From Candidatus Altimarinota bacterium (GTDB lineage: Bacteria > Patescibacteriota > Gracilibacteria > BD1-5 > UBA2023): DNA of 64,000 bases. The translations under genes were made by a program, and so were the position numbers. Position 1 is the stretch's first letter. Each line of letters begins with the position of its first letter. Location: assembly GCA_043739785.1 (NCBI GenBank), contig JAYUDN010000001.1, forward strand, positions 37,392 to 101,391, written 5' to 3'. Positions 1,324 to 58,245 of the stretch are shown here, piece after piece. Below the pieces are notes generated by a model. It made no database searches. It worked only from the letters and a program-made list of their open reading frames with translations, and was not told where the DNA came from.

Positions 1324-2319
1324 CTAATCTTTATTCGCGCTCTGTGCATTCATCACCTTATAAAAGAGCTGAGAAATCGGGTTGAGAACATTTCGAAGGT
1401 TTTCTCTGAGATCCAGGTAGTCACTCTGGATAAACTGGAGTAGGAGGTGGACCGAGTAGGTTCGCTCCATTTCGACGAAGGCCGTGATAGCGACGGGATA
1501 GGTACGTTTTGCGGAAGTGACTTCGCTCGCAATGTCTCGATTCATCTGGTCGAGCTGAAAGGCGACCTGAGCGGTATCCTTGGGACTCAGTGGCGCGGTG
1601 GAACTGATCGCTCGGAAGTCATTCATCTCTTTTTGCACCTTAGAAAAGTCGAGGTTTACATTTTTCTGGAGGTATTCGAGGTAGTATCGATAGTTGCAGT
1701 ACTGGTAAGAAGCCGTATCGAGGAGGCGAAGGCGCATCGGGATCGGGTTATTATTACTATCGACGACTTCGGTATTGCCATTGCAGGTCTGAAGCAGCTT
1801 ACGTTGATTCTCGAGCTTCGTGTTGAGTCCCTTGATTTTTGTAATAATCTCTGAATTTTTGTTTCCGAAGGTTTCATTGACCTGTACTACTTTCTCCGCT
1901 ATCCGTATCCTCGAAGAGAGCATCGCACAAGCAAAAACCGAGTTCATCTGAGAATTGTAGATCCCACGAGAAAGGCTCAATATATCGAGGGAGTAGTTAC
2001 TAGTTGGTGGTTGGTAGACTGGTTTTCCAGTTTTCTGGACATACTGTTCAAGGGCGATCTTCTTTTCTTCGACGGATGCAGAACTCATCTGGGGGTAGAC
2101 GACATTTGGACTATCGATGATCGCCGTCGAGAGCATCGAACCATTCGATATATTCCATGGAGCGAGTCCTTCTGGATCTTGCTTCATGCAGTAGTAATTC
2201 ACATTTTTCTGATAACAACCATAGGTGATATTCGCTTCATCAGTACAAGGCTCCGCGGCGAAAATACTCCTCGGGAGGAGTGCTACAATTATGAGGATGA
2301 AGGGGAGGAGGTACTTCAT
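1324..2319 (-). CDS. Secreted hypothetical protein, last gene of the T4SS-like block
   Basis: 331 aa with N-terminal signal peptide MKYLLPFILIIVALLPRSIFAAEP. Its start lies 2 nt downstream of the stop of the ATPase gene. Confidence 0.6.
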   Translation of the reverse strand: MKYLLPFILIIVALLPRSIFAAEPCTDEANITYGCYQKNVNYYCMKQDPEGLAPWNISNGSMLSTAIIDSPNVVYPQMSSASVEEKKIALEQYVQKTGKPVYQPPTSNYSLDILSLSRGIYNSQMNSVFACAMLSSRIRIAEKVVQVNETFGNKNSEIITKIKGLNTKLENQRKLLQTCNGNTEVVDSNNNPIPMRLRLLDTASYQYCNYRYYLEYLQKNVNLDFSKVQKEMNDFRAISSTAPLSPKDTAQVAFQLDQMNRDIASEVTSAKRTYPVAITAFVEMERTYSVHLLLQFIQSDYLDLRENLRNVLNPISQLFYKVMNAQSANKD

Positions 2320-2320
2320 A

Positions 2321-4744
2321 CTAGACGGCTCAGATACGGTAAATAATCTCTTTTTCTACAAATTCTCGTTCCCGACCATACTTCAGTCGAGAGAGTTCCT
2401 TGAGGGCGGCACCGATGGTTGGATCTCCTTTCTCGAGCCATGGACGAGGGACCGAGAGGCTAAATCCCTGGGATGGTTGTTCGTCGATAGAGAGGCGCAT
2501 CGCCGCATTGAACTTATCCATATTGAGAAAGTCCTGTTCAGAATAGAGAGGGGCAAACTGCTTCGCCATAAACTCGGCATCTTCTGGACCGATCTTGTAG
2601 CTCATCATCGTCCCGACGTTTCCGAAGATGGCATCCTTGAGGTTTAGCTGAGACTTCGTGAGGGCGTCAGATTTCTGAAGCTGACCGAGGTACTGGTGGG
2701 CTATGACGAGACCGAGTCGATACTTTCGAGCTTCTGAAAGGATAGACTCGATACTGTCGGTGACATAGTTCTGGAACTCATCGATATAGAGGAAAAAATC
2801 CTTTCGGAGCGTCTTGTCCATATTTTGTCGACGCATGGCGGCTATCTGTATCTTCGAGACGAGGACGAGTCCGAGCAGGGTCGAATTGAGGTCTCCGATA
2901 ATACCCTTCGAAAGCGAAACGAGGAGGATTTTTTCGTTATTCATGATATCTTCGATGTCGAAGGCACTTTTCGTCTGTCCGACAATATTTCGCATCATCG
3001 TGTTCGTGATGAACTGACCAAACTTCGCGGCAAAGTAGGGGATAATCTCCGCTTTTTCACGGTCTCCCATCTTCGCATAGGTATAATCCCACCAAGAACG
3101 AACAATCGGGTTTTTGAGAGTGGTGCGTCGTTCTCGCTGGAAGTTCTCATCAGTAAAGAGTCGTATGAGGTCAGTGATGGCTCATCCTTGAGGATAGTCG
3201 AGGAGGGTAAGGCATCCATTTCGGAAGTAGTCCTGGATTCGAGGACCGAATATCTCATTTCCGAAGAGTTTGATCATGATATTGGTAGCGTCGCCGACGA
3301 CCATCTGTTTCTCATCTTCACTTTTTGCCTCGAGGAGGTTGAGTCCCATAGGACGGCTCAGGTCTCCAGGATCGAAGTAGACGAGGTCCTCAGCTCGTTC
3401 GCGAGGGATGAAGTCGACAAGTCCTTTGGCGAAGTCACCATGGGGATCCATGACCGCGATACCTCGACCAGTGCGAATGTCTTGGCGAGCCATCACCGAG
3501 AGGATAGATGACTTTCCCGTACCGGTTTGTCCGATGACGTAGAAGTGTCGAAACCGATCTTCATTTTTCATATAGATCGCCTTTCGTTCGCCACGAAAGA
3601 TATTTTCTCCGAGGTAGAGACCTTCCTTCCCGACATTGATCGGCGCCTTGAGCACTTTGAACCGTTGCCAACGAATCTCAGGTTGCTTGTTGTACTTCGA
3701 GTGCGGAAAGTGAAAGAGGGTGGCGATTTCTTCACTATTGAGAACCGGAGATCCCTGCCACCAAGCGAATTGTCGGAAGATATAGTGTCTTATAAGGAGG
3801 GAAAGGGACTTTCGTTTGACGGGCTTGAACCGATTATAGGCCGGAGAGGCAAACTGAGAAAATGACGAAATAATATTGCCAAGCTGTCCATCGACATCGA
3901 CAGGATCATTGCCCGTGGTGACAATACGGATCACCATCGTGTATCCTGTTTTTTTTACTTTTTCTTTCATAAGGCCATCATCATCGATCGGTTCGGCTTC
4001 ATTTTCTTCTGGCTTGGATCCTCCTTTTTCCTCGTCTTGTGAACCAAATATCTCGATAAAACTCATAAGCCACTCGAGTGGATTCCATGAAATATACGAG
4101 TGGTGTCATTTCTCAGATTTTTTGATCTTTTTCTTAATACGCTCTTGCCAGTCATCATCGACGGGGCGCAAAAGGATCTGGATGGCACTGGATTCATCGC
4201 TTGAGAGCTTCGACAGCGCCGAAAGAATTCCATTCATACTATCCGTTTCGAGTTTCTGATAGGTACGTATCGGGAATGCGTAGGGTTTCTTGAGCTTCAT
4301 CATCTCTCCTCTGACGACGGATCGAGATTCGAAAATATTGACCTCTTCCGTCTCTTCGACGAACGCATCTGGATAGAACCCGACAATTTGTTTTTCTACG
4401 AGGTTCCGCGAGTGCTTCGGCACGACAATATAGAAGTAGATCTCACTCCCATGAGCGACATATTCGAGCGAAATATACTCTTGCCCGAGTATCCATCCCT
4501 TGATATTTCATGCATAGAGGTACTTCAGAGAGGCAAGGAGTTGTTCCATAATCGAGATCTGTTCACGAAAGTCCTTGATCGTTTCTTTTTTCTCATCAAG
4601 ATCACTATCCTTTCTGGCCATTGTGACACGGAGAAAGACCATATTGAGGGATCGCTTCAGATTCACCTTCCGACGTAAGTAGATAAATCAGAGGGTTAGC
4701 GCTATGACGGTCGAGATGATATAAAAAAGGAGTTCCGAGAGCAT
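2321..4744 (-). CDS. VirD4/TraD-like (T4SS coupling-protein-like) P-loop ATPase, membrane anchored, 807 aa
   Basis: Track ORFs 2330..3070, 3182..4066 and 4106..4423 share one frame and join through TGA codons at 2330, 3182, 4106, 4508 and 4688. N-terminal TM segment MLSELLFYIISTVIALTLGFIYL; Walker A GQTGTGKS; DPHGD; Walker B-like LYIDEFQN. True stop is TAG 2321-2323. Confidence 0.75.
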
Positions 4745-4777
4745 TCGAGACGAAGGTAATATAGGGGAGAAGGTACT

Positions 4778-5746
4778 TTAGCCCTTGAGGATAAAGAATC
4801 GAAAAATAGCATGACTTCCGACGAGGAGGATCAGACCGAGTGCGATATAGATAATCGTTCCCTTTGCTTTTTTGAGTTTTTCCTCATCTCCGGCAGATAT
4901 GAGGACGAGCCATCCTGCGTAGATAATAAGAATCACGGAAAGAAGCGCTAGAAACCCATTGAGGTAGTTCACAAAGTTTCCAAATATTCCGAGTGAGGCT
5001 TGCACATTGGGATCCTTGATCGCACAGTCACCAATAGTGACGAGGTTAAACGGTCCTACATTTTTACAGTCGGGCTGACCATAGACGAGTCGTATGAGCG
5101 TTTCTGGGATGCGTATGAGGATGAATCAGATGATACTGTAGATGAGGGTATTTTTTCATTTTTTGAATTTCTCCTCATCTCCACCACCGGTGACCATCGT
5201 GTAAAAAGCAAGAATCGACATCGCGATAAAGCCAAAGGCCGCGAGCATCTGGAGTACCTGTACAAATGGAGAAAAGATATTTCTCCAGAGTTTTCCCCCG
5301 AGTCCAGACCCGATGACTTCCGTAACGTCTCCGAGGATAAGCGTCGTCCATACCGTGTAGGCCACCTGCATCAACAGGATCCCGAGGGATACCCAGAGGA
5401 TATTTTGCCGCCATACCTTCACCTTCTCTTCGCTCGCATCGGAAAGGAGGAGCTTCATCACTCAGACGAGGAGAAATACCAGCGCGATAAAGATAAAGAA
5501 ATTCTTCACATTGTAGGCTATCACGACGACGAGGTCAGTGATCCCCTCGCCACCACCATTTCCAGGTCTGATAAAGGAAGCCAGGAGGGGACCGACAAAT
5601 TGTTCGAGGGTATCATTTCCCTTCCCGCTGTTGTTGACGACTCATCCACGAACATTGAGGGTGGCGTCATCGAGCGCCCAGACAGAGGGCGAAAAAATAG
5701 AAAAAAGTGAAACCAAGAATAACAATACGAGGAGAAGTTTTCGCAT
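4778..5746 (-). CDS. Triple tandem T4SS-pilin-like (TrbC/VirB2-type) fusion protein with signal peptide, 322 aa
   Basis: Track ORFs 4778..5005 and 5156..5461 are in frame and join through TGAs at 5126, 5156, 5462 and 5645. Signal peptide MRKLLLVLLFLVSLFSIFSPSVWA. Three repeats of TM - (S/G)(D/G)(A/D)(S/E)EEK.K(K/V) - TM. Confidence 0.7.
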
Positions 5747-5846
5747 AGAGGGAATTTACATAGATTCATTATATCTGAAGCCGGCGCGGAACGCAAATAT
5801 ACTGCAAAAAATTGTTGAACCTCAGGAGTTTTCCCGGCTGAATTTT

Positions 5847-8465
5847 CTATTTTTTTGTTGTAGGGATATTTTTCTTCTCATCTAATGGTTTTTTCTGAGA
5901 TCAAGAAGCACCGATTTCTCGCTCTTGGGCTCGTTTTTCTTTCATTTTTTCTTTGTACTCCATCTGCTCGGTATGGTAGCTTTTTTCTTCTTCAGAAATC
6001 TTGTGGGCGAAGTCGAAGATTTTTTTCTCGACAAATTTTCGATCTTTGGTGTATTTTTCCCGACTGACCCGCAGGAGGGTTTCTTTCGATTGTTCTTCCT
6101 TCACCTCGGTACGCTCATGCAGTGGACCAAACGTCGTCGCCGAGTAAACGGGAGAAGGCATCCCGTCGATCAGGAGCTTCGTATAGATATCGTACTTTCG
6201 AAGGTTGGTCAGGTCATGTGGGGTGATAATATCCTCTCCACCATACACTTCCGAAAGGGTCACCGCATCATGGTGTCAGACCTGAAAGGAGACCAGGGTT
6301 CCCACATTTCCAAATACCGCATCCTGAACCGTCTCCGGCATCTGAGCGATGTATTGGTTCGCCATCGTCAGAGAGAGCTTATACTTCCGAGCCTCTGAGA
6401 GGATGGTCGCAAAAGAATCGGTCGCAAAGTTCTGGAACTCATCGACATAGAGCCCGAAGTCACGTCGATCCTTCTCGGGAATATCCGCTCTGGTCATCGC
6501 TTCGATCTGGAATTTCGTGACCATCATCGCTCCGAGGAGAGCACTCGCATCTTCCCCAATTCGCCCTTTTGAGAGGTTCACGATAAATATCTTCCCATTG
6601 TCCATAATCCAGCGGAGGGAAAATGGATTTTTGGGCTGACCGAGGATATTGCGAAGGAGGGGCGAAGAAAGAAACTGTCAGACTTTGTTGAGAATCGGAT
6701 TGACGGCTTCACTCATCATGCTCGGACTCATAGCTGCAAATTCTCGTTCCCAGAATTGCACAAGGATAGGATCTGGAAGCTTTGCTACTATTTTTTTCCG
6801 GTACGATTCATGGGTGAGAATAAGTGGGATCGAGATAAGGGTCGTATCAGGGATGAATAGGAGCGTGAGGATCGTATTGCGGAGGATATACTCGAGTCGT
6901 GGTCCCCAGCTTTCCGCAAACATCTTCTTGAAGATAGACACGAGTCCACTCGCGACAATCGACCGAAGTTCGGGATCTGGATTATCGAGCATATTGAATC
7001 CAATCGGAAACTCTTTGTCAGATGGATCAAAGAGGACAATGTCATTGGTCCGAGATTTTGGAATATGCGCGAGGATGGTATCCGCGAGATCTCCATGGGG
7101 ATCGATAAGACCCACACCTCGACCCGAGAGGATATCGGAGTAGATCATATTTTCGAGGAGGGTTGACTTCCCCATACCGGTTTTTCCGATGATGTAGACA
7201 TGGCGGGCACGATCTATCGGCTTGATACCGAAGGGGATATCGGCCCCTCGAAAATTGGTATGACCCAGGGGGGTATGTGGGATCGAAGCATCGGGAAGGT
7301 TGTGAGGAGGCTCGAACCGACGGGTGAGGACCCAGTTAATCCCAGGAGTTTTCACATAGAGGGTCGGCATATGGACGAGACCCGCAAGCTCTACGGTATT
7401 GAGAATATGGGTTGGTCTTGGCTTCTGAGCTCGAAGGTGTTCATAACTCATCGAGGTCACTCATGATTTCATCGAAAAAGCATTTCCACCAGAATGGGAA
7501 AATATATTCATAGCTCCGGAGAGCTCCCTGAGGAGGAGACGGTCTTTGATTTCTTCCTTCTTTTCGATAGCGATAGCGACAGAGGTAGCGTATCCATACG
7601 TATCATTCTTTTTATCGATCGGTATTTTTTTATCACTGTGGTTGTTTGACTCCAAAGATTCCTCACTTTTGACTGTCAAAAACGAAAATATCCAACCGAT
7701 AACGAGGAGGGGAAAGAGGATGACTCTCAACCACCACCAGTTTCAGAGGATCCATTTCTTCACAAAGTCGGGGAAGATATGCGATGATCGAATACTGAGC
7801 ATGAGTGATTCTCTCCAAGAGTCTTTCACGGGGACAAAACCTATCTGAAGGAATGCAACCTCCTGTTTGGGAAGTTTGGTGAGTGCAGAAGTGATGCTCG
7901 AAAGGGGATCGATGGCGTCTTTTTCACTTCGATCCTTGAGTCCTCCATAGAGTTTGATCGTCGTGTTATCGGTATGTTCGAGGCGAACTGGCTGAACGAG
8001 GAGGATACTTTTGGTATCTATCAGGGGCTCGGTTCGAGAGATTTCAATATCTGGATAGTGGGCATAGAGCTGGCTTTCGAGAAATCCTGCAAATTCCGCA
8101 GGGGTATGCATAAGGAAACGAATGCGACCATCGCGGTGTATAATCTCGAACTGAAAGAGAGGAAACGGGCTTTTTTTCCAGAACTGCCACCACGGGTGTT
8201 TTAGAGAGGCTACATGATGGAGCGTCGAAAGCATCTGGGAAGCGACAAAGACTCACTTCTCATTCATACGATCAACCGCAATCTCGAGGGTAATGGGAGT
8301 TCCATCAGGTATGGTCGAAGCACCCAGTGTATGTTGTTTGAGATCTTCCCCGAGACTTCCCCCGCCAGAAGATTCCTCATGCCTCTGATACTTTCTCTGT
8401 GCCGAAAAATGATGTGGTTTCATGGAAATAACAAAAAAAGCAATATCTTCCGATGATACTATCAT
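5847..8465 (-). CDS. Second VirD4/TraD-like P-loop ATPase, 872 aa (paralog of 2321..4744)
   Basis: Six track ORFs (5901.., 6276.., 6678.., 7461.., 7743.., 8253..) share one frame and join through TGAs. Walker A GKTGMGKS; DPHGD; LYVDEFQN. N-terminal FQFEIIHRDGRIRFLMHTP...YAHYPD domain, then TM segment WWWLRVILFPLLVIGWIFSFL. Stop is TAG 5847-5849. Confidence 0.75.
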
Positions 8466-10720: not shown

Positions 10721-11119
10721 ATGAATAATATCTCTAATATAGGGTATCGATGGAGTTTCTGATGAGATAAAGACCTCGCAGAAATACTTCTTAGACTTGT
10801 CTTATGTGGTATGAAAACGGCTACCACATGACTCTATTTGGAAGATGAGCCCATATGAAAAATAGGGGAGTATGCAGTAGTATATGATGAATTCACGGGA
10901 AAAGATCTTTGCGTGATACAGTATACGAATGTCGAAGTACTGCCATTTCTCAGTGTCCCATATGAGTATATAAAAAAAGAATGAGAGTGAGATACAAGTG
11001 TAGAAAGTTGGAGAGTATCACATAGGGATTTCTATAAAAGAGAGTATTGAGATCAATTCGATGATACCTCACTGGTGTTATGCGAGGAATTCAGACTTGT
11101 AAAAAATTTAATAATTTAA
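10721..11119 (+). CDS. ASCH domain protein
   Basis: WSF(G)(G)D ... GMKTAT ... E(G)E(G)D motifs. Seven in-frame TGAs in 132 codons, including TGAs at 10982 and 10988 inside EGEGD. Confidence 0.8.
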
Positions 11120-11121
11120 CT

Positions 11122-11703
11122 ATGGAACGAGAACTCGTCTTTTCTATCCTGGCTTTTCTGATTACGCTATGGAGCACTATAGTAATGTGGAGGTGAATCT
11201 TTCGTGGGGAAATTATTCCGCACCCTTTTACTTTCTTCATCTGGGTTATCGTTCTATGAATCAGCTCAATGGAATTGATACAAAACCACGAAATTTTCTG
11301 ATCCCTCGGAATTCTACTTATGACAGTGAGTAATATATGAGCTTGCATATTTGGTGTATCTCAGTGGAAATCAATATCAATAAACTGGATGGATTGGTTT
11401 TTTCTTTTTTCTGGCATTTTCCTCATCACTTTCTGGAGACTAGAACCGAACTACGCTTATGTACTTGCAGTGATGCTCGCGATCGATGCCACTGCTTATG
11501 CCTCGAGTTTCAAGAAAACTTGGATACAACCCTTTACCGAGAAATCAGCTCCTTACTTTATCTCTGTCGGAAATAATATTTGTACGATTCTGGCAATCTT
11601 TGTCTGGAATTTCGAGAACCTCGGAATGTGGATATGGACGGCTTGTATCAACCTCATTTTCGCTTGTTTTATCCTCTGGAGGCAATATTATGTGAGGAAA
11701 TAA
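11122..11703 (+). CDS. Integral membrane protein, paralog A
   Basis: 193 aa, multi-TM, four in-frame TGAs. Shares R(G)..(I/L)PHPF(T/S)(F/Y)F(I/V)W and KK.W..P..E motifs with the next gene. Confidence 0.55.
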
Positions 11704-11705
11704 CT

Positions 11706-12305
11706 ATGGAAAAAGAACTTTTTTTTGCACTCATCAGTATATTTTTTTACATTATATGAACGGTTCCCTATTTCCGTGACGTTTTACGATGACGAACTCT
11801 TCCTCATCCATTCTCCTATTTTGTATGGTTTATCCTGACTGGATTTAATACTCTCGTACTTCTCTGGCAAAAGGAATATATCTCCCTCATTCCCGCGTTA
11901 CTCAATACACTATCAAATATTATTTTTACAATGTACGGCATAAAGAGCTTTCGAAAGATTCAGATAAACTATTTCGATTATATTTTTCTTGTCTGAGCAT
12001 TACTGCTCCTTCCTTTTTATTTTTACACACAAAATGTATTTTTGACGGTTATACTGAGTATAGGAATAGATTTTTTAGGTTTTTTATCTACCCTCAAGAA
12101 ATGATGGAATCAACCTTGGAGTGAGACACTTTTTACCTTCCTAGTTATTGGATTGTCTCAACTCCTTATATTATTTACGCAATGAACAGTAATTTTAGAA
12201 TCTTCAGCATTTTGGATATACGTCTTTTTTGTGAATATAATTTTTATTAGCATTGTCGGATTTCGTCGCTATTATCTCAAGGGATGGAAATCTATCTTCG
12301 AATAA
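11706..12305 (+). CDS. Integral membrane protein, paralog B
   Basis: 199 aa, multi-TM. Starts 2 nt after paralog A and has the same motif layout. Confidence 0.55.
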
Positions 12306-12351: not shown

Positions 12352-13485
12352 ATGTCCTACGATCAGTTTGCTACCACATTCTCGAAGAGTCGGAAACACC
12401 ATCCTTGGCCAGAATTGGACGCTATTATTTCCGATATCCAATCCGAGGGATATATGAGGGTGCTTGATGTCGGGTGCGGTAACGGAAGGCTCCTCGAAGA
12501 GTGGTTCAAAAGAAGCGAAGCAAAACAAGGTTTGAATTGAGAACAAGAAAACCCCCCGTCGAAGGGGGGCAGGGGGATACGGGGTTGGTATGCTAACTCG
12601 AATCAAGCTATTCCGTATGATAGAAAACTCCTGGAAAAAGCGAAAGAAAATAGAAAATCTGGAAATCCAGTAGAAAATGCTTTTTGGTTTACTATTCTGA
12701 AATCTGAATCTCTTAAAAAATATAAGTTTACTCGACAGAAGCCACTTCTGACTTATGTAGTTGATTTTTATTGTTCCGAACTCTGATTGATTATCGAGCT
12801 CGATGGGGACTCTCATACTACTCAGATTTTATATGATCAAAAAAGAACCGAGGAACTAGAAAAGTACTGACTTTTTATCCTCAGATTTTCGAATCAAGAT
12901 GTGATGTTGCGGCCAGAGTGAGTATTAGAGAATCTACTTGAATGCATTCGACAGAGAGAAAGTTACCCCCCTCCCCCCCTTGGAAGGGGGGTATCACACC
13001 CATATACTTGAAATTGAAAAGAAGCTTTAGATATTACATATCTCTGAATCGATAATTCAGTCGGGATGATTAATGAAGCTAGAAAATGCCATCCTGGATA
13101 TGATTTCCGAGTTATTGAAATGGCTCAACTTGAAAACTTGAAAACTTGAAAACTTGAAAACTATGACGCTATAGTCTTGTTGGCATCTTTCCATCACCTC
13201 GAAACCGAAGCAGAGCGACTGACCGTATTGTCATCGCTTCGGAAAATGCTTTCACCACACGGACGAATCTATATGACGAACTGGAACCTGCTCGGGCAGC
13301 CTCGATATGAAAAAAGTCACCGAGGAAATGGCGACTTCGATATCAAGATCGGGGAATACATTCGATACTACCATAGTTTCCAGATCGAAGAGCTCCAGAC
13401 ACTTTTCGAAAAATCTGGATTCAGTATTCGAGAACATAGAATATTTGAAGGAGGAAAAAATATTTTCTCTATCGTAGGATTATAG
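12352..13485 (+). CDS. Class I SAM-dependent methyltransferase carrying an in-frame DUF559 endonuclease cassette
   Basis: Motif I VLDVGCGNGRLL lies upstream and LGIDNSVGMINEARK plus LLASFHHL downstream. One uninterrupted code-25 frame covers 377 codons. 12253..12540 and 13177..13485 are in the same frame (924 nt apart). Confidence 0.7.
12541..12995 (+). mobile_element. DUF559 (Vsr-like endonuclease fold) cassette with GC-rich hairpin ends, inserted in frame
   Basis: IPYDRKLLEKAKENRK...AFW..L......YKFTRQKPLLTYVVDFYCSEL(G)LIIELDGDSH...YDQKRTEELEKY(G)LFILRFSNQDV. Flanked by cccccc-gtcgaa-gggggg (12552..12569) and cccccc-ttggaa-gggggg (12974..12991). Confidence 0.7.
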
Positions 13486-27734: not shown

Positions 27735-28187
27735 GTATTAGTTTATTAGTTTATTAGTTTATTAGAGCATGAGAGCACTGGTGAACGGATGTACCGGACA
27801 AGAACTTTTTTACAGTTTTCGAAACTTCAAGAGTAGATTCTCGTTTTCTCGGGAATGACAGTAGTAAAATTCCCCTTTCAACCTGCTAACTCCCAGAATC
27901 TACTTTTCTCCGTCTCCGTCGCTTCCACCCCTCCTTTTTTACCCCCTAGTCCCCCTTGGAAGGGGGATTCGGAATCCCCTTATTCGTCGTCCAAAGCCTT
28001 TCCACTTTCCGACTTTCTAACCAGCCAATCAGCTTACCGACTCCTTTCCCCATCCCAGCTTACCTGCACCTAGCTATCTCCTCTTCCTCGTCTATTTCGT
28101 CTCTATAGTTTCTACCCTTCACTCCTTCCACCAACCAGCATACCAGCTAATCAGCCAATCTACCTCACTTCTAATCCCCCCTTTATT
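27735..28187. repeat. Intergenic mosaic repeat array A
   Basis: gtttatta x3 (27741..27764); GC hairpin accccctagtcccccttggaagggggattcggaatcccc (27941..27979); reverse-orientation word tracts (ccagccaatcagcttacc, tctaccc). Confidence 0.8.
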
Positions 28188-34289: not shown

Positions 34290-34560
34290 AGAGGGGGAGG
34301 GGTTAAGAATTAGCTGGTTAGCAGGTTTGTTGGGAGGTTGGGATGGGAGAAGGGTAGAGACGGTAGAAACGATCGAACGGTAGAGACGGGGGGCTGGTTT
34401 GCTGATTAGCTGGGAAGGAGAGAAGCTGGTTGGTGGGGAGAGGAGTTTCCATCCCCCTTCCAAGGGGGGCAGGGGGTAAAAAAAGAAGAGTAGAAAAGTA
34501 AAGAGAGAAACCTTATAGTACGGTCATTCCCGTGAAAACGGGAATCTAAATGAAACTTCA
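34290..34560. repeat. Intergenic mosaic repeat array B
   Basis: gctggt/ggtagag words, GC hairpin tccatcccccttccaaggggggcagggggt (34447..34480) and gtcattcccgtgaaaacgggaatc (34523..34546). Confidence 0.8.
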
Positions 34561-34657
34561 CGACGTTTCTGTTTTAAAAAAAGATTCGCCCGAGGGCCAA
34601 TCTTTTTACTATTCCTCCTGAGTATATCGATAGTTTATGAATTGTAAAATTTATTTT

Positions 34658-34685
34658 TTGACATTCATCATATTTTCTATAGAAT
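34658..34685 (+). promoter_or_regulatory. Sigma70-like promoter for rpmH-rnpA-yidC
   Basis: TTGACA (34658..34663), 16-nt spacer, TAGAAT (34680..34685), 25 nt upstream of the rpmH ATG. Confidence 0.5.
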
Positions 34686-34709
34686 TCGCGTACTTTTTAT
34701 GTACAACTT

Positions 34710-34952
34710 ATGATAGGAAAACTCAAGAAAAGAAAGCGACTCCGTGTTCATGGCTTTCTGAAGCGTATATCTACGGTGGATGGACAAAAGGTTCTCCGAT
34801 CTCGCCGCCGAAAGGGACGACATGTTCTCGCGGTCAGCTACCCAAACCGAGTGAAAAACATTCGAGGAAAGAGCCGACACCATATCGTAGCCGGAGGAAC
34901 AGCGCGGATTGTAACCTTCCCAGGTCTTACTGAGCGTTTTCGAGCTCGCTAG
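34710..34952 (+). CDS. rpmH: 50S ribosomal protein L34 with a C-terminal extension
   Basis: [37 protein letters not shown] core, followed by ~37 extra residues before TAG. Confidence 0.75.
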
Positions 34953-35032
34953 GCGTTGTATTCTGGACGTTTCATTAGTATCTATCTCGGCCTAGCAAGT
35001 CCATCCGATTTCCTAGGCCTTTTCTTTTCTCT

Positions 35033-35380
35033 ATGATCGCCTCACGATACCGACTATCCGAAAATGAAGTCAAAAAAGTACTCAAACAAAAGAAGCCATT
35101 TTTTTCACATACCTTCGTGGCCAATGTGATGAGAAATAACCTCGCAGTTTCGCGATTCGCTATCCTCCTCTCGGGGAAGCACGCGCCAGGAAGTGTGAAT
35201 CGAAACTACTGGAGGCGTCTCTACTATACTCGGTCAGAGCCCTATGTGGAGAGCCCAGGAGTCGATATCGTCCTCATTCCGAAGAAGTGAAAAATTTTTG
35301 ATAAAAATGACCAAACACATACAATAGAGGCCGTTCGAGATATCGATTACCTCCTCAGACAAATATTTCCAAGAAGATAG
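35033..35380 (+). CDS. rnpA: Ribonuclease P protein component
   Basis: Lies between rpmH and yidC. Basic 115-aa protein containing RLSENEVKKVLKQKKPFFS...FAILLSGK, with one in-frame TGA at 35288. Confidence 0.75.
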
Positions 35381-35485
35381 TATCCGATTTTGAAAGCAAA
35401 ATAGAGGAAGATACGTATTCCTTGTTTCCCGCATTATATTCCAAAGATACCTCAATACGCCAACCTCACCCTAAACCCCCTCCCC

Positions 35486-36685: not shown

Positions 36686-37480
36686 AAAGTTAGAATAGGA
36701 GGTAGCTGGTAAGCTGGGATGGGAGAAAAAGGGAGAAGAGTGGAAAAGGAGAAAGCTGATTCGCTGGTAAGAAAGTTGGAAAGGAAAAATAGTAGGATAA
36801 CTCGAGAGGAGGAATGGGTAAGATGATGCAAGGGTAAAAGAAAAAAAACGAGTTTTTGTCATTCCGACCGAAACGACCATAGGAAGTGAAGTGGAGGAAT
36901 CCCTTTTCACATTAAGAAGATAAAATCATACTGAAACCAAGGGATCCCTCGATTCCGGCTATCTCCTCCACTCGGGATGACAACGGTGAGAGAAGAGTAG
37001 AAGAGCGTAAAAGTAGAAGAGTAGAAGAGCGAATGGGGGTCTCTATCCCCCTTCCAAGGGGGACAAGGGGGTAGGGTATAAGGAAGTTTGGTGTCATTCC
37101 GACCGAAGTGACAGAGGGGAAAGCGCCACGAGAATTCCATTGTTACTTTGTCATTCCCGTGAAAACGGGAATCCAGCAAATAAGAAACTGGATCCCCGCA
37201 TGCGCGAGGATGACAACCAAAAGAAGTAGAAAAGAGGAAAGGGAGAGAACTTAGAAACGATGGGAAGGTGGATGAGAGTTTTTTGAATCCCCCTTCCAAG
37301 AGGGACTAAGGGGAGTAGGGTATAAGGAAGTAAAAAAGGAGAAGAGTAGAAAAGTAGAATTGGATAAAGTAAGAACAGCAAGAGCCAAACACGGGAAAAC
37401 CCGAGCACTCCAACTCTCGGAGAGATGATCACATTGAAAAGAGAGAAGAAAGTCATATAATACGCCACTCATACACATCT
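36686..37480. repeat. Intergenic mosaic repeat array C (about 0.8 kb, largest in the window)
   Basis: Modules: M3 36858..36903, M5 36941..36982, GC hairpins 37031..37086 and 37280..37330, M3 37093..37138, M1-M2 composite 37150..37215, plus gtagaag and gctggt word tracts. Confidence 0.85.
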
Positions 37481-37730
37481 ATACCCCTCGCTTCCCCTAC
37501 GAAATATCCACTCCCAGATTATAAAACAACCCAATACTTAACCGTCAATACCTCTTTATTTGCTATCGTGTTTTGATATATGGTATACTGACCGTGTATC
37601 TTCAATATCAAAACATATGTTCTCGTCCTCACTCGGTTTCAATAAAAGTTCTCTCCTTGTCGTCAGTACTCGTGAAGAACTCAATATTATTTTTACCGGA
37701 GCCCGCATCAAGTATAACTCCATTCGACAA

Positions 37731-41501: not shown

Positions 41502-42557
41502 TTAGAGGTCGAGAAGTTCAGTACGATCTTTGTCTCGCATATAGCGGAGGGCATCAGATTTTTCGACGATTCATCGTCGGTAGATGTCGATGATCGCGTC
41601 ATCCATGAGCATCATCCCATCCTTTTTCGAGATTTCGATCATCGAGTACATATGCTGGGTTTCTCCGCGGATGATGAGATTGCGTATGGAGTCGTTATTG
41701 ATGAGTACTTCTCTCGCGGCAATCTGCCCCGTCCCATCCCGCTTCGGGAGGAGGGCCTGAGAAATAACGCCGATCATCGAGAGGCCAAGCTGGATGCGAA
41801 TCTGTCCTTTGGATTGCTCGGGAAATGACTGGATGATACGATCGATCGACTGTACGGTATCATTTGTATGGAGGGTCGAGAGGACGAGATGCCCTGTTTC
41901 TGCGAGGGTGATGGCGGCTTCCATGGTCTGGATATCTCGCATTTCTCCGACGACGATCACATCTGGATCTTCTCGGAGGATACTCCTGATCCCGCCGAGG
42001 AAAGTATCGAAGTGCTTCCCATACTCTCGCTGATGGATGAGACACTCCTTATTCTCATAGGTGAACTCGATCGGGTCTTCGAGCGTGATGATGTGTCGAG
42101 GACTATTCTGGTTGATGTACTCGATCATCGCGGCCATTGTGGTGGACTTTCCACTTCCAGTCGGTCCCGTGATGAGGATGATTCATTTCTCCTTATTCGT
42201 GAGGTCGAGGAGGTGTTGAGAGAGGCCGATGGACTCCGGACTCGGGATCGTACTCGGAACCATACGAAGGGAGATACACCATCCCCGAAGGACTCGAGAA
42301 ATATTGACTCGAAACCTCGCATCTTCGAAAGCATAAGCGGTATCCACTGATTTCACATCGGAGGGTATTTCTTTCGGGTAGATAAATCGGATAATATCCT
42401 CGATATCCTCGAGAGTTAGTTTCCCGAAAGCAGCAATCGGTTTCAGTTTCCCATCATGAATCCGGATATACGGGAATCCGGTCGTCGTGATGTGGAGGTC
42501 TGAAATATTTTTTTTGATGAGTTCTCCTACGAGGGATTCAAACTTTCCGAGTTCCAT
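41502..42557 (-). CDS. pilT: Type IV pilus retraction ATPase PilT-like
   Basis: (G)IILITGPTGSGKSTT, ITLEDPIEF, VGEMRD and STLHTN. 41571.. and 42183.. are in frame. The start is placed at MELGKFESLV. Confidence 0.8.
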
Positions 42558-42645: not shown

Positions 42646-43275
42646 ATGAAATGTATCATCTGACTCGGAAATCCAGGGAAAAACTATCAACATACTCGAC
42701 ACAATGTCGGGTTTATGATGATAGACCAGATTGCTGAAAGGTATGGCGATGGAGTATGGAAGGATTCGAAGTTCCAGGGAGTGGTTTCGAGTTGAGAGTT
42801 TCCTGTTTTCAGTTGAAAAAAACTTTTATTGGATTCTACAGGTGAATGAATGGAAAGAGCTGTGAATGGACAACCAACAGCTCAAAACTCAAAACCCAAA
42901 ACCGAAAACTGTCTCCTCCTGAAGCCTCTTACCTTTATGAACCTCTCAGGGCAGTCGGTCGCGAGCCTGGTACACTTCTACAAACTGGATCCGAAGACCG
43001 ATATTCTCGTCATCGCTGATGATATCGATATGGCATTCGGAAAGGTTCGATACCGGGCAAAGGGGAGTTCCGGAGGGCAAAATGGACTCAAGTCCATCAT
43101 CGAACATCTCGGGACGGACGAATTCGCTCGGATCAAAGTCGGGATTGGTCGGGATGATCGCTTCGCCGTGAGTGACTGGGTTCTCTCGAAGTTCACGAGT
43201 GAAGAAATGAAAATACTCAAAGAAGTCGTATTTCTGGAGGTTCAGTCAAAAATAGATGAATGGATGGAGGGGTAA
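42646..43275 (+). CDS. pth: Peptidyl-tRNA hydrolase with an internal insertion of about 32 codons
   Basis: MKCII(G)[39 protein letters not shown] and VGIGR. The N-terminal part is only recovered by reading TGAs at 42661, 42793, 42814 and 42847. Confidence 0.85.
42784..42910 (+). repeat. Heptad-array-bounded segment inside pth
   Basis: Left: gtttcga|gttgaga|gtttcct|gttttca|gttgaaa (42784..42818). Right: ctcaaaa|ctcaaaa|cccaaaa|ccgaaaa (42881..42908). The two arrays are in inverted sense. Confidence 0.7.
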
Positions 43276-43838
43276 TGAAAAGTGAAGAATGAATAACGAA
43301 GAATAGAGGGGAAATTACGAAATACGAATGAAGAATTAGTAGCAAAAAATGAAGAATATGAGCCCTTCGTCATTCTGAGGTCGCCCCTTTGCGAAGCATT
43401 GGAAGTACCCTTGGGGTACGAAGAATCCAGATTCCGAAAGACCGAACTTCTTCAGGACTATCCTGATCGGTGTACGGGAGTGAAAAATTGTTGTCATTCC
43501 CGTGAAAACGGGAATCCACTTCTCTTTACCCCCTTAGTCCCCCTTGGAAGGGGGATTCAAAATCCTCATTCGCTTTTCTTTTGTTGTCATCTCGAGTGGA
43601 GGCGATAGCCGGAATCGAGAGATCCCTTTGCTTCAGTATGATTTCAATCCCTTGAAGTGGAATAAGGGATTCCTCCGCTTCACTTCCAGCGGTCGTTTCG
43701 GTCGGAATGACAAAAAAATCAGTTCTACTCGTCTACCATCTTCTACCACACTCTACCATCTTCTACCACACTCTACCATCGTCTACCCAACCAGCACACT
43801 AGCAAACCAGCCAACCAGTTATTTCCTAACCTTCCCCT
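43276..43838. repeat. Intergenic mosaic repeat array D
   Basis: M6 43367..43429, M1 43493..43517, GC hairpin 43527..43565, M5 (reverse) 43586..43625, M3 (reverse) 43666..43711, and CTACC phased every 10 nt at 43733..43783. Confidence 0.85.
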
Positions 43839-57968: not shown

Positions 57969-58245
57969 GAGAGAGACGGTAGAAATGGTAGGAGCAGGTA
58001 GATTCTAGCAAATAGAAGATAGAAAGGGCAGAGAGGTTAGAAACGGTAGAAACTAAGTATAATTGGTAATTCCATCCCCCTTCTAAGGGGGATTGGGGGG
58101 TAAGGTATGAGAGAGCGAAATGGTAGAAGGGTAGAAAAGTAGAAAAGGGAGAAGTTGAATAGGATGAGTAGTTCAATTACAGTATAGCTTCTATTCAGCT
58201 CTTTTTTGGTTTGGAGAATGAGGTTTTTTTCCATAAAATCCCACT
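57969..58245. repeat. Intergenic mosaic repeat array I
   Basis: GGTAG at 57978, 57987 and 57997; GC hairpin 58070..58109; gtagaaaag words. Confidence 0.8.

Follow-up and report, generated by a model that had tools for sequence, protein, structure and literature searches.

How can a methyltransferase gene carry a complete nuclease domain in its interior and still be read as a single open frame? The question is raised by a 64,000-nucleotide stretch of contig JAYUDN010000001.1 from a Candidatus Altimarinota bacterium (here called the window), in which a class I S-adenosylmethionine (SAM)-dependent methyltransferase gene is interrupted, without loss of frame, by a DUF559 endonuclease domain bounded by GC-rich inverted repeats. 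An earlier note on this DNA had described the insert as a homing-endonuclease-like element. This description stood, and the case is not unique, since the insert belongs to a widespread type of cassette. In the reading that we favor, and that we consider probable, the cassette is a homing-type DUF559 nuclease gene, selfish and mobile, whose product forms an internal domain of the host protein.

A single reading frame through the insert

Taking TGA off the list of stop codons raised the number of codons located in long open reading frames (ORFs) of the 64-kb window from 12.9k to 47.6k; removal of TAA or TAG changed this number little. TGA is thus clearly a sense codon in the window. Read with translation table 11, positions 12352 to 13485 afford only fragments, with 8 in-frame TGA codons, and at four of these (SEL[G]LIIELDG, EKY[G]L, PE[G]V, and YL[G]ID) homologues have a conserved glycine. 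These glycines, together with the name Candidatus Gracilibacteria carried by the nearest methyltransferase orthologues, point to genetic code 25, in which TGA specifies glycine. No tRNA reading UGA was found within the window, which has a G+C content of 44.5%.

Under code 25, positions 12352 to 13485 (+ strand) form a single fusion ORF of 377 amino acids that includes the 8 TGA (Gly) codons and ends with a TAG stop codon. Thus, the methyltransferase frame does run uninterrupted through the insert, as had been claimed, though only under this code. For the 157 codons of the cassette, the host frame is the only one of the six that is devoid of TAA and TAG, the other frames containing 3 to 9 stops, and an open frame was obtained in only 13 of 20,000 shuffles. 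Gene calls made with code 11 on code-25 genomes hide fusions of this kind as fragments.

Anatomy of the cassette

The N-terminal methyltransferase part (12352 to 12534, +; residues 1 to 61) comprises helix A and the SAM-binding motif I VLDVGCGNG (12460 to 12486), and the C-terminal part (13039 to 13482, +) extends from YLGIDNS (beta-2, motif II) to the end of the protein, with all family-invariant residues kept. The inserted segment, which amounts to approximately 159 codons in comparison to empty-site orthologues (12535 to 13020, +; its edges are uncertain by a few codons), lies between motif I and YLGIDNS, i.e., in the loop connecting helix A to beta-2 of the Rossmann fold, in agreement with its previous placement. 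Pfam matches to Methyltransf_12, Methyltransf_25, and Methyltransf_11 are split and located on both sides of DUF559. In silico removal of the insert afforded one contiguous methyltransferase match (profile positions 1 to 97), and Methyltransf_12, Methyltransf_25, Methyltransf_11, Methyltransf_31, and Methyltransf_23 then exceeded their cutoffs. No NCBIfam equivalog scored above its cutoff for the methyltransferase.

The insert does contain a full DUF559 nuclease domain (PF04480; 12628 to 12948, +; residues 93 to 199), which was detected by Pfam with a score of 96.5 bits for a cutoff of 20.6 (E = 1e-27; profile positions 3 to 108 of 109). The DUF559-invariant residues (W, F-R-Q-K-P, VDFYC, IELDGDSH, and YD..R) are present in the window copy, in which all alignment-invariant columns are kept.

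The GC-rich hairpins reported at both ends of the insert, CCCCCC-GTCGAA-GGGGGG (CCCCCCGTCGAAGGGGGG, 12552 to 12569) and CCCCCC(C)-TTGGAA-GGGGGG (CCCCCC(C)TTGGAAGGGGGG, 12973 to 12991), were found at these sites and are the sole matches to C6-N3-9-G6 in 64 kb (0.01 expected). Their description as hairpins has to be amended, however, as they are the arms of a true terminal inverted repeat (TIR) of 29 nucleotides, which also occurs as dispersed solo copies in the window (see below). In the left arm (ACCCCCCGTCGAAGGGGGGCAGGGGGATA, 12551 to 12579, +), the hairpin is followed by CA-GGGGG, and in the right arm (TACCCCCCTCCCCCCCTTGGAAGGGGGGT, 12964 to 12992, +), it is preceded by TA-CCCCCC-T; the two arms are 86% complementary. 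Each arm therefore combines a C-run/loop/G-run hairpin with a third C or G run, and this third run indicates that the arrangement is truly inverted rather than made of two copies of a palindrome. The arms are read in the host frame as NPPSKGGRGI and YPPPPLGRG, respectively, and, whichever of the six frames is considered, they encode Pro/Gly-rich peptides without stops. From the left arm to residue 146, in the middle of the nuclease domain, no ATG, GTG, or TTG occurs in frame, implying that a full-length nuclease can be obtained only from the start codon of the methyltransferase.

The cassette unit, with its complete nuclease domain, spans ~440 to 480 nucleotides, and TIR-to-TIR lengths are not multiples of 3. 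In the minimum-free-energy fold of the RNA, the TIRs pair in a stem of ~27 bp around the whole nuclease ORF (-128 kcal/mol, z = -2.2). Twelve cassettes were inspected beside their TIRs, and none displayed a target-site duplication; in the window, a weak direct repeat of 9 bp (AATTGAGAA, 12535 to 12543, and AATTGAAAA, 13012 to 13020; 8/9 matches, same codon phase) is within chance expectation.

The absence of intein and intron features, also part of the earlier description, was borne out. Pfam detected no Hint or intein family in the fusion protein, and the junctions (...GLNGEQEN/PPSKGG... and ...PLGRGVSHPYTGNG...) do not contain the intein junction residues HN+C/S/T. Rfam identified no intron or ribozyme family, with nothing but sub-threshold chance matches between positions 12000 and 14000 and two tRNAs as the only hits over the whole window.

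Empty sites and a second filled allele

The insert-deleted methyltransferase used as a query retrieved 653 orthologues, the best 120 of which are contiguous proteins of ~205 residues with names including class I SAM-dependent methyltransferase and Trm9-like. The loop extending from GCGNGRFLEE to YLGID contains 14 residues in 75 of 100 orthologues versus 171 in the window protein, which defines the empty site. Since the window protein keeps the 57 invariant columns of a 20-sequence alignment (57/57), the gene is not decayed, which refutes the possibility that the two halves of the methyltransferase are mere remnants. A search with the whole 377-residue fusion retrieved no database protein containing both the methyltransferase and the DUF559 parts.

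A second filled allele was found in a 1.3-kb contig (L001), which, under code 25, encodes an orthologous methyltransferase with a DUF559 cassette in frame in the same loop, the ends of this cassette displaying the same kind of inverted repeat as in the window. The L001 nuclease (P0121) is the best database match of the window cassette (68% identity). Comparison of the two alleles revealed 70% identity without gaps for the nuclease domains and 52 to 57% for the host parts. The L001 methyltransferase shares 75% identity with empty-site orthologues and 56% with that of the window. In a neighbor-joining tree, the smallest clade containing both filled alleles comprised 71 of the 102 leaves, and the two alleles were sisters in 0 of 100 bootstraps. 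These two filled alleles are the only ones found in this methyltransferase family, and the distance between them indicates that the insert is not an ancestral part of the family. Entry of the cassette into the same loop on two occasions would be far more economical than dozens of precise losses and points to an independent, site-specific acquisition in the window and in L001. Host alleles that are distant, combined with nucleases that are each other's best match, make up the pattern expected of a site-specific homing element.

Inserts of another kind occupy the same loop in three methyltransferases (P0031, P0040, and P0043, at loci L050, L051, and L052, respectively). These inserts do not belong to DUF559, comprise 42 to 103 residues, and contain small palindromic sequences. 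These sequences indicate that, in this lineage, the loop between helix A and beta-2 generally tolerates palindromic insertions that keep the frame, in a manner resembling Rickettsia palindromic elements (RPEs).

The same cassette type in other genes and phyla

In TGA-recoded relatives read with code 25, cassettes were found in frame in genes for a PrmC/HemK-type methyltransferase (L003), a MiaB/RimO-type radical-SAM enzyme (L004), and an FNR-like oxidoreductase (L005). In all five recoded loci checked on DNA (the window, L001, L003, L004, and L005), the cassette reads in the sense direction and shares the frame of the downstream part of the host. In L003 (~1570 to 1800), the cassette in PrmC is followed, in the host frame, by three tandem copies of a hairpin-encoded 23-residue unit, LEGGLSNIPESTETEVLxLRSSH.

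Zunongwangia pacifica and Joostella sp. CR20 carry the cassette in frame in leucyl-tRNA synthetase (LeuRS), directly before the editing domain, and marine metagenome contigs contain the same LeuRS insertion. In Flavobacterium weaverense DSM 19727, the cassette is located inside a UvrD-family helicase. One cassette lineage (GYMTGGN.SHLL.EKAKENRKNPT) is present in two host genes, encoding LeuRS and UvrD, in the Flavobacteriaceae. Additional hosts include Sua5/YrdC (TsaC), PrmC, with the insert at the same site as in L003, and a family of type III-like DNA methylases, one of which is encoded on a contig of 5 Mb.

An exhaustive profile search for DUF559 afforded 31,755 matches, the best 150 representatives of which were examined. 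At least 60 residues were present on both sides of DUF559 in 22 of these and on one side in 35 more, which makes 57 in all. The hosts identified by Pfam comprised class I aminoacyl-tRNA synthetases, LeuRS, AlaRS, RecG, RecJ, and RNase HII; MiaA, MiaB, QueA, a TrmA-like methyltransferase, and PrmC; iPGM, Mur ligase, RibF, and an Elp3-like radical-SAM enzyme; and many type ISP, type IIG, and type I restriction-modification subunits. The survey of in-frame versus free-standing copies that the earlier note had called for thus revealed many further in-frame copies, and the cassette also occurs free-standing between genes. Scanning reference genomes identified 20 distant loci (32 to 46% identity), mostly small free-standing ORFs and none from close Gracilibacteria, and scanning metagenomes identified mostly distant loci. 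Phages contained 2 distant copies of DUF559, and plasmids contained 33 distant, free-standing copies. An origin from a defense system or a phage was considered and rejected, as PADLOC and PHROGs returned weak partial matches only.

Insertion points often adjoin conserved motifs: they are located before motif I in PrmC, after LLGQNVNSYG in MiaB, before TTRPDT in LeuRS, and before NYANPDMVGHTG in iPGM. Insertion beside highly conserved motifs is also characteristic of inteins and homing endonucleases. Among 23 loci, which belong to many phyla, 15 had a best inverted match between the left and right flanks that surpassed all 40 shuffles, the TIR reaching 41 nucleotides in an Acidimicrobiales genome. 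The left boundary peptide, PPxKGGxG, and the right one, PPxPPLxxG, are kept from Gracilibacteria to Gammaproteobacteria, indicating that the ends of the cassette are read in a fixed frame with the nuclease.

More complex architectures were also observed. The iPGM proteins P0287 (1,334 residues) and P0270 (1,061 residues) contain DUF559 together with GNAT, methyltransferase, NUDIX, or DUF218 domains between their halves, which may represent either several inserts nested in frame or, in recoded genomes, gene calls that read through. P0193 (377 residues), P0202, P0333, and P0319 each contain two or three copies of DUF559, arranged in tandem or repeated within the ORF.

Selection on the embedded nuclease

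Four-fold degenerate sites are close to saturation between the window and L001, with values of 12/33 in the host part and 10/24 in the cassette for a chance level of 0.26. The rate of nonsynonymous substitution (dN) is lower for the nuclease (0.22) than for the host (0.37). Because of this near saturation, the high amino acid identity of the two nucleases indicates purifying selection rather than recent transfer. In the LeuRS set, dN was 0.14 to 0.30 for the embedded domain versus 0.17 to 0.24 for the essential host, synonymous substitutions (dS) were at or near saturation, and omega was about 0.1 to 0.25. These values indicate that the embedded DUF559 is kept as a protein, and, from sequence comparison, the embedded copies are under purifying selection.

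Fold of the nuclease and relationship to homing endonucleases

An AlphaFold (AF2) model was obtained for P0122, a free-standing relative that is 57% identical to the window domain, with a predicted local distance difference test (pLDDT) score of 86.4. The model matched 3hrl, a structural-genomics DUF559 entry, with a template modeling (TM) score of 0.89, followed by chain B of 3r3p, the catalytic domain of I-Bth0305I (3r3p_B; TM 0.74, root mean square deviation 3.2 A, probability 1.00); the match to Vsr (1cw0) was weak (TM 0.41). Sequence searching also reached 3hrl (E = 2e-16), but the profile of the DUF559 cassette reached this entry only and neither 3r3p nor Vsr. On the basis of this model, the best functional fold match is predicted to be the homing endonuclease I-Bth0305I, which lends support to the notion of a homing-endonuclease-like element. 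Candidates for the composite catalytic motif E..D..x..H..D of EDxHD enzymes are the conserved residues D (VDFYC), E-x-D (IELDG), H (DSH), and D (YD). In the P0122 model, only two short helices precede the nuclease core. Foldseek additionally matched the DUF559 model to the apicomplexan/ciliate mitoribosomal proteins 9i05, 9g6k, and 6z1p and to the nuclease domains of PvuRts1I/AbaSI.

Among PD-(D/E)XK nucleases, a single clade unites Vsr, DUF559, and I-Bth0305I (PMC3424549). Vsr-like (EDxHD) homing endonucleases invade conserved genes, where they are located in group I introns, between the halves of split inteins, or in free-standing ORFs that fracture genes (PMC2677866, PMC3239194).

Solo TIR units and other dispersed hairpins

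Six additional copies of the TIR unit, TACCCCC-n(1-5)-CCCCCTTGGAAGGGGGAT, are present in the window, in both orientations and all in long non-coding stretches. Those at 27940 to 27968 (+; TACCCCCTAGTCCCCCTTGGAAGGGGGAT), 34451 to 34478 (-; TACCCCCTGCCCCCCTTGGAAGGGGGAT, with 23 of 24 bases matching the right end of the cassette), and 37045 to 37073 (-) are intergenic, as are a degenerate unit at 37287 to 37316 (-) and a unit with the loop variant TTAGAA at 58074 to 58103 (-). The sixth (43527 to 43556, +) is located in the non-coding stretch 42660 to 43838. The TIR unit of the local cassette also recurs in the vicinity of other cassettes, with five near-exact copies (0 to 1 mismatch) in L009, two exact copies in L007, and near-exact copies in L017 and L008. 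The solo units of L009 have spread together with a tandemly duplicated family of small genes, so the solo units as evidence for mobilization in trans are supportive but not clean.

In L009 (Dysgonomonas massiliensis; 1880 to 5854), a 24-nucleotide TIR unit is located exactly 59 nucleotides 5' of each of five tandem paralogues. These encode a small membrane protein (MKTDLYTKIVLT...), and the DUF559 cassette lies between two of them.

A second family of dispersed hairpins (TCCCGTGAAAACGGGA, often as GATTCCCG...CGGGAATGAC) is intergenic and often located near TIR-like units. Its 16-nucleotide cores are found in the window at 34528, 37155, 43498, 44863, and 55309, with variants at 41737, 48387, 54137, and 61499. 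In the orthologue L051, a member of this family is read in frame in the methyltransferase loop as HRFPTKVLGNDED. The non-coding stretches 34290 to 35470, 36686 to 37616, and 42660 to 43838 (0.9 to 1.2 kb) have a length unusual in a small genome and contain both families of hairpins at high density. The code-25 ORFs called in these stretches look spurious, being of low complexity and rich in R, G, and S.

Mode of spread and maintenance of the cassette

We propose that the methyltransferase gene would have received, in frame and sense-oriented, a DUF559 cassette (Vsr/EDxHD-type PD-(D/E)XK). Having neither a start nor a stop codon of its own, the cassette would be transcribed and translated within the host protein from the host promoter and start codon. 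The nuclease would fold as a domain of its own in a loop at the protein surface, at a distance from the SAM site, with the hairpin-encoded Pro/Gly peptides (PPSKGGRG and PPPPLGRG) acting as flexible linkers, and the methyltransferase would stay active without the need for an intron or an intein. More generally, insertion in surface loops beside conserved motifs would leave the host enzyme working. The nuclease would cut cassette-free alleles at or near the same conserved site, and recombinational repair would copy the cassette into them, which amounts to homing. The solo hairpin units may be footprints or non-autonomous partners of the same system. This proposal draws on the anatomy of the cassette, the empty sites, the patchy and incongruent distribution, the recurrence at the same sites and in many hosts, the kept frame, the purifying selection, and the fold relationship. 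From these data, we infer a single fusion protein retaining methyltransferase function, a nuclease with an activity and a specificity of its own, cleavage of empty alleles, and a role for the hairpins, TIRs, and solo units.

Several observations weigh against homing. Classical homing endonuclease genes need no TIRs, and the TIRs and solo units go beyond what is explained by homing alone. Both filled alleles contain ~23 to 26 extra codons outside the TIRs, and these codons are mutually non-homologous. Pfam detected no N-terminal DNA-binding modules of the NUMOD type. The model of P0192, a PrmC with DUF559 used as a proxy for the fusion and computed without an alignment, has a pLDDT of 33.7 and is uninformative on the fold of a fusion. 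No signal of recent transfer is visible between the window and L001, for which synonymous sites are saturated. In the LeuRS set, the identities of the cassette and of the host track each other, which fits long vertical persistence, possibly domestication, as well as ongoing homing. For the pair formed by L010 and L029, dS is 0.04 for the cassette versus 0.31 for the host, but the gene is generally mosaic and displays no clean co-conversion tract; gene conversion in this pair is only suggestive.

A rival explanation is transposition. In a TIR-dependent process resembling that of repetitive extragenic palindromic (REP) sequences and REP-associated tyrosine transposases (RAYTs), the nuclease would act on the hairpin units and mobilize the cassette and, in trans, the solo units to new places rather than home into one allele, in-frame copies being the survivors of selection. 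True TIRs whose third C/G run is asymmetric, the match of six solo units within 64 kb to the ends of the cassette, solo units matching the TIR of the local cassette in L009, L007, L017, and L008, and the occurrence of one cassette lineage in both LeuRS and UvrD of the Flavobacteriaceae are all in keeping with this process. We nonetheless regard it as unlikely. The absence of target-site duplications in 12 cassettes argues against a cut-and-paste mechanism, and the filling of the same loop in two distant orthologues and the recurrence of sites in PrmC, MiaB, and LeuRS argue for site-specific targeting. The solo units of L009 owe their dispersal to tandem gene duplication. We also know of no transposase that consists of a PD-(D/E)XK nuclease alone.

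Domestication, in which DUF559 would be kept as a useful nucleic acid-binding or -cutting module and would no longer be mobile, appears improbable. It would account for purifying selection as strong on the embedded domains as on LeuRS and for the covariation of cassette and host identities in LeuRS, and it suits the many hosts that act on nucleic acids (aminoacyl-tRNA synthetases, tRNA modification enzymes, helicases, and restriction-modification enzymes) as well as the TrmJ-DUF559 fusion noted earlier (PMC1829167). A useful module is, however, difficult to reconcile with hosts that share no function, such as iPGM, Mur ligase, RibF, and the FNR-like oxidoreductase, with the finding of two filled alleles unrelated by descent in the methyltransferase family, and with a cassette that has TIRs and also occurs free-standing between genes.

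Removal of the insert after transcription or translation by an undescribed route, either RNA processing at the TIR stem followed by ligation or protein excision independent of a Hint domain, is very improbable. The predicted pairing of the TIRs in a long stem would bring the flanks together, but this stem is a thermodynamic prediction only. Every embedded copy keeps the frame through both junctions, which would be unnecessary if the insert were cut from the RNA, TIR-to-TIR lengths are not multiples of 3, and intron or ribozyme families, a Hint domain, and splice-junction residues were not detected. Finally, an assembly chimera or a disrupted methyltransferase pseudogene left open by the accident of having only two stop codons is hardly credible, even though recoding of TGA lengthens chance open frames and the window comes from a metagenome-type assembly, as the frame was open in only 13 of 20,000 shuffles, methyltransferase- and DUF559-invariant residues are all kept, and the same architecture is found in the independent assembly L001 and, for other hosts, in cultured standard-code bacteria.

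Relation to known systems

Homing endonucleases are thought to survive in genes only if they are removed with an intron or an intein, or else to reside between genes. A homing nuclease kept in frame, as we favor for the DUF559 cassette, would depart from both situations. The cassette resembles EDxHD (Vsr-like) homing endonucleases by its PD-(D/E)XK clade, by the invasion of conserved housekeeping and DNA/RNA-metabolism genes, and by its patchy distribution among orthologues. It differs from them by the presence of hairpin TIRs, by the lack of NUMOD repeats, and by its location, since known members are found in introns, split inteins, or gene-splitting ORFs and the cassette is read through in frame. 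To our knowledge, EDxHD homing endonucleases have never been found to be read through in this manner. This group, which includes I-Bth0305I, was treated by Dassa et al. in 2009 ("fractured genes"; PMC2677866) and by Taylor et al. in 2011 (PMC3239194).

The nearest published concept is the ShiLan domain, a homing insertion that leaves open the frame of a mycobacteriophage DNA methylase (Arsenault, Gosselin, and Gogarten, 2025, PMC11855218). ShiLan has a homing-like distribution and was proposed to remain in the protein as a loop; its HNH nuclease is hidden in another frame, in which it has a GTG start and a TAA stop codon to itself, and the in-frame product is not a nuclease (PMC11855218). The two systems have in common a host methylase frame that stays open and the absence of intein or intron features. 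Unlike ShiLan, the DUF559 nuclease is itself the in-frame product, and the cassette has hairpin TIRs and is found in cellular hosts belonging to many phyla.

As for inteins, the cassette is inserted in frame at conserved sites of essential proteins and depends on the host start codon for expression. Inteins often carry a homing endonuclease. The cassette differs from them by the lack of a Hint domain and of splice-junction residues, and its removal from the protein is therefore not expected. RPEs and MITEs (miniature inverted-repeat transposable elements) likewise are palindromic GC-rich repeats that are tolerated in frame in the surface loops of proteins. In-frame repeats of the MITE type are short non-coding palindromes, usually with a target-site duplication. 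RPEs and MITEs thus encode no enzyme, in contrast to the cassette, which contains a complete nuclease and displays no target-site duplication. The REP/RAYT systems share with the cassette the location of a gene between inverted hairpin repeats and the dispersion of a genome-specific repeat as solo copies. Unlike the DUF559 PD-(D/E)XK nuclease, RAYTs are HUH/Y1 transposases of the IS200/IS605 type, and their genes do not occur as in-frame inserts within other genes.

In the DUF559 literature searched, which did not extend to subscription-only literature, there was no description of hairpin-bounded DUF559 cassettes in frame in housekeeping genes. A C-terminal TrmJ-DUF559 fusion was noted as a curiosity in an older paper (PMC1829167). 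The chances appear evenly balanced that the cassettes represent a fourth lifestyle of homing endonucleases, in addition to introns, inteins, and free-standing genes, in which the nuclease would be read through from the host start codon as a permanent domain of essential proteins, between stop-free Pro/Gly-encoding TIRs, in a REP/RAYT-like partnership with dispersed repeats and across phyla, the TGA-recoded Gracilibacteria and the cultured Flavobacteriaceae included. If so, a nuclease can stay in a protein as an extra domain, which would be a new strategy for selfish elements. This would account for the many odd architectures listed in databases as "DUF559 fusion" and for many of the gene calls that are split in recoded genomes, would reveal natural permissive sites for domain insertion and Pro/Gly linker designs in LeuRS, RecG, and MiaB, and would provide a family of possibly site-specific nucleases for study. 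The presence of the cassette in cultured Z. pacifica, Joostella sp. CR20, and F. weaverense DSM 19727 makes the idea accessible to bench work.

Gene neighborhood and other features of the locus

The methyltransferase gene is preceded by genes encoding Era and two paralogous membrane proteins and is followed, on the opposite strand, by a gene encoding a CorC/HlyC-type protein. Era adjoins the methyltransferase in the orthologue L050 too. The two paralogues are multi-pass membrane proteins encoded by overlapping frames (11080 to 11703 and 11634 to 12305) located directly 5' of the methyltransferase. Inside the methyltransferase ORF, positions 13127 to 13166 of the window consist of ~4 copies of an 8-bp tandem repeat (CTTGAAAA), which encodes QLENLKTGKLENYD in a loop of variable length. 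Gain or loss of one repeat unit would result in a frameshift, and the repeat may act as a slipped-strand on/off switch.

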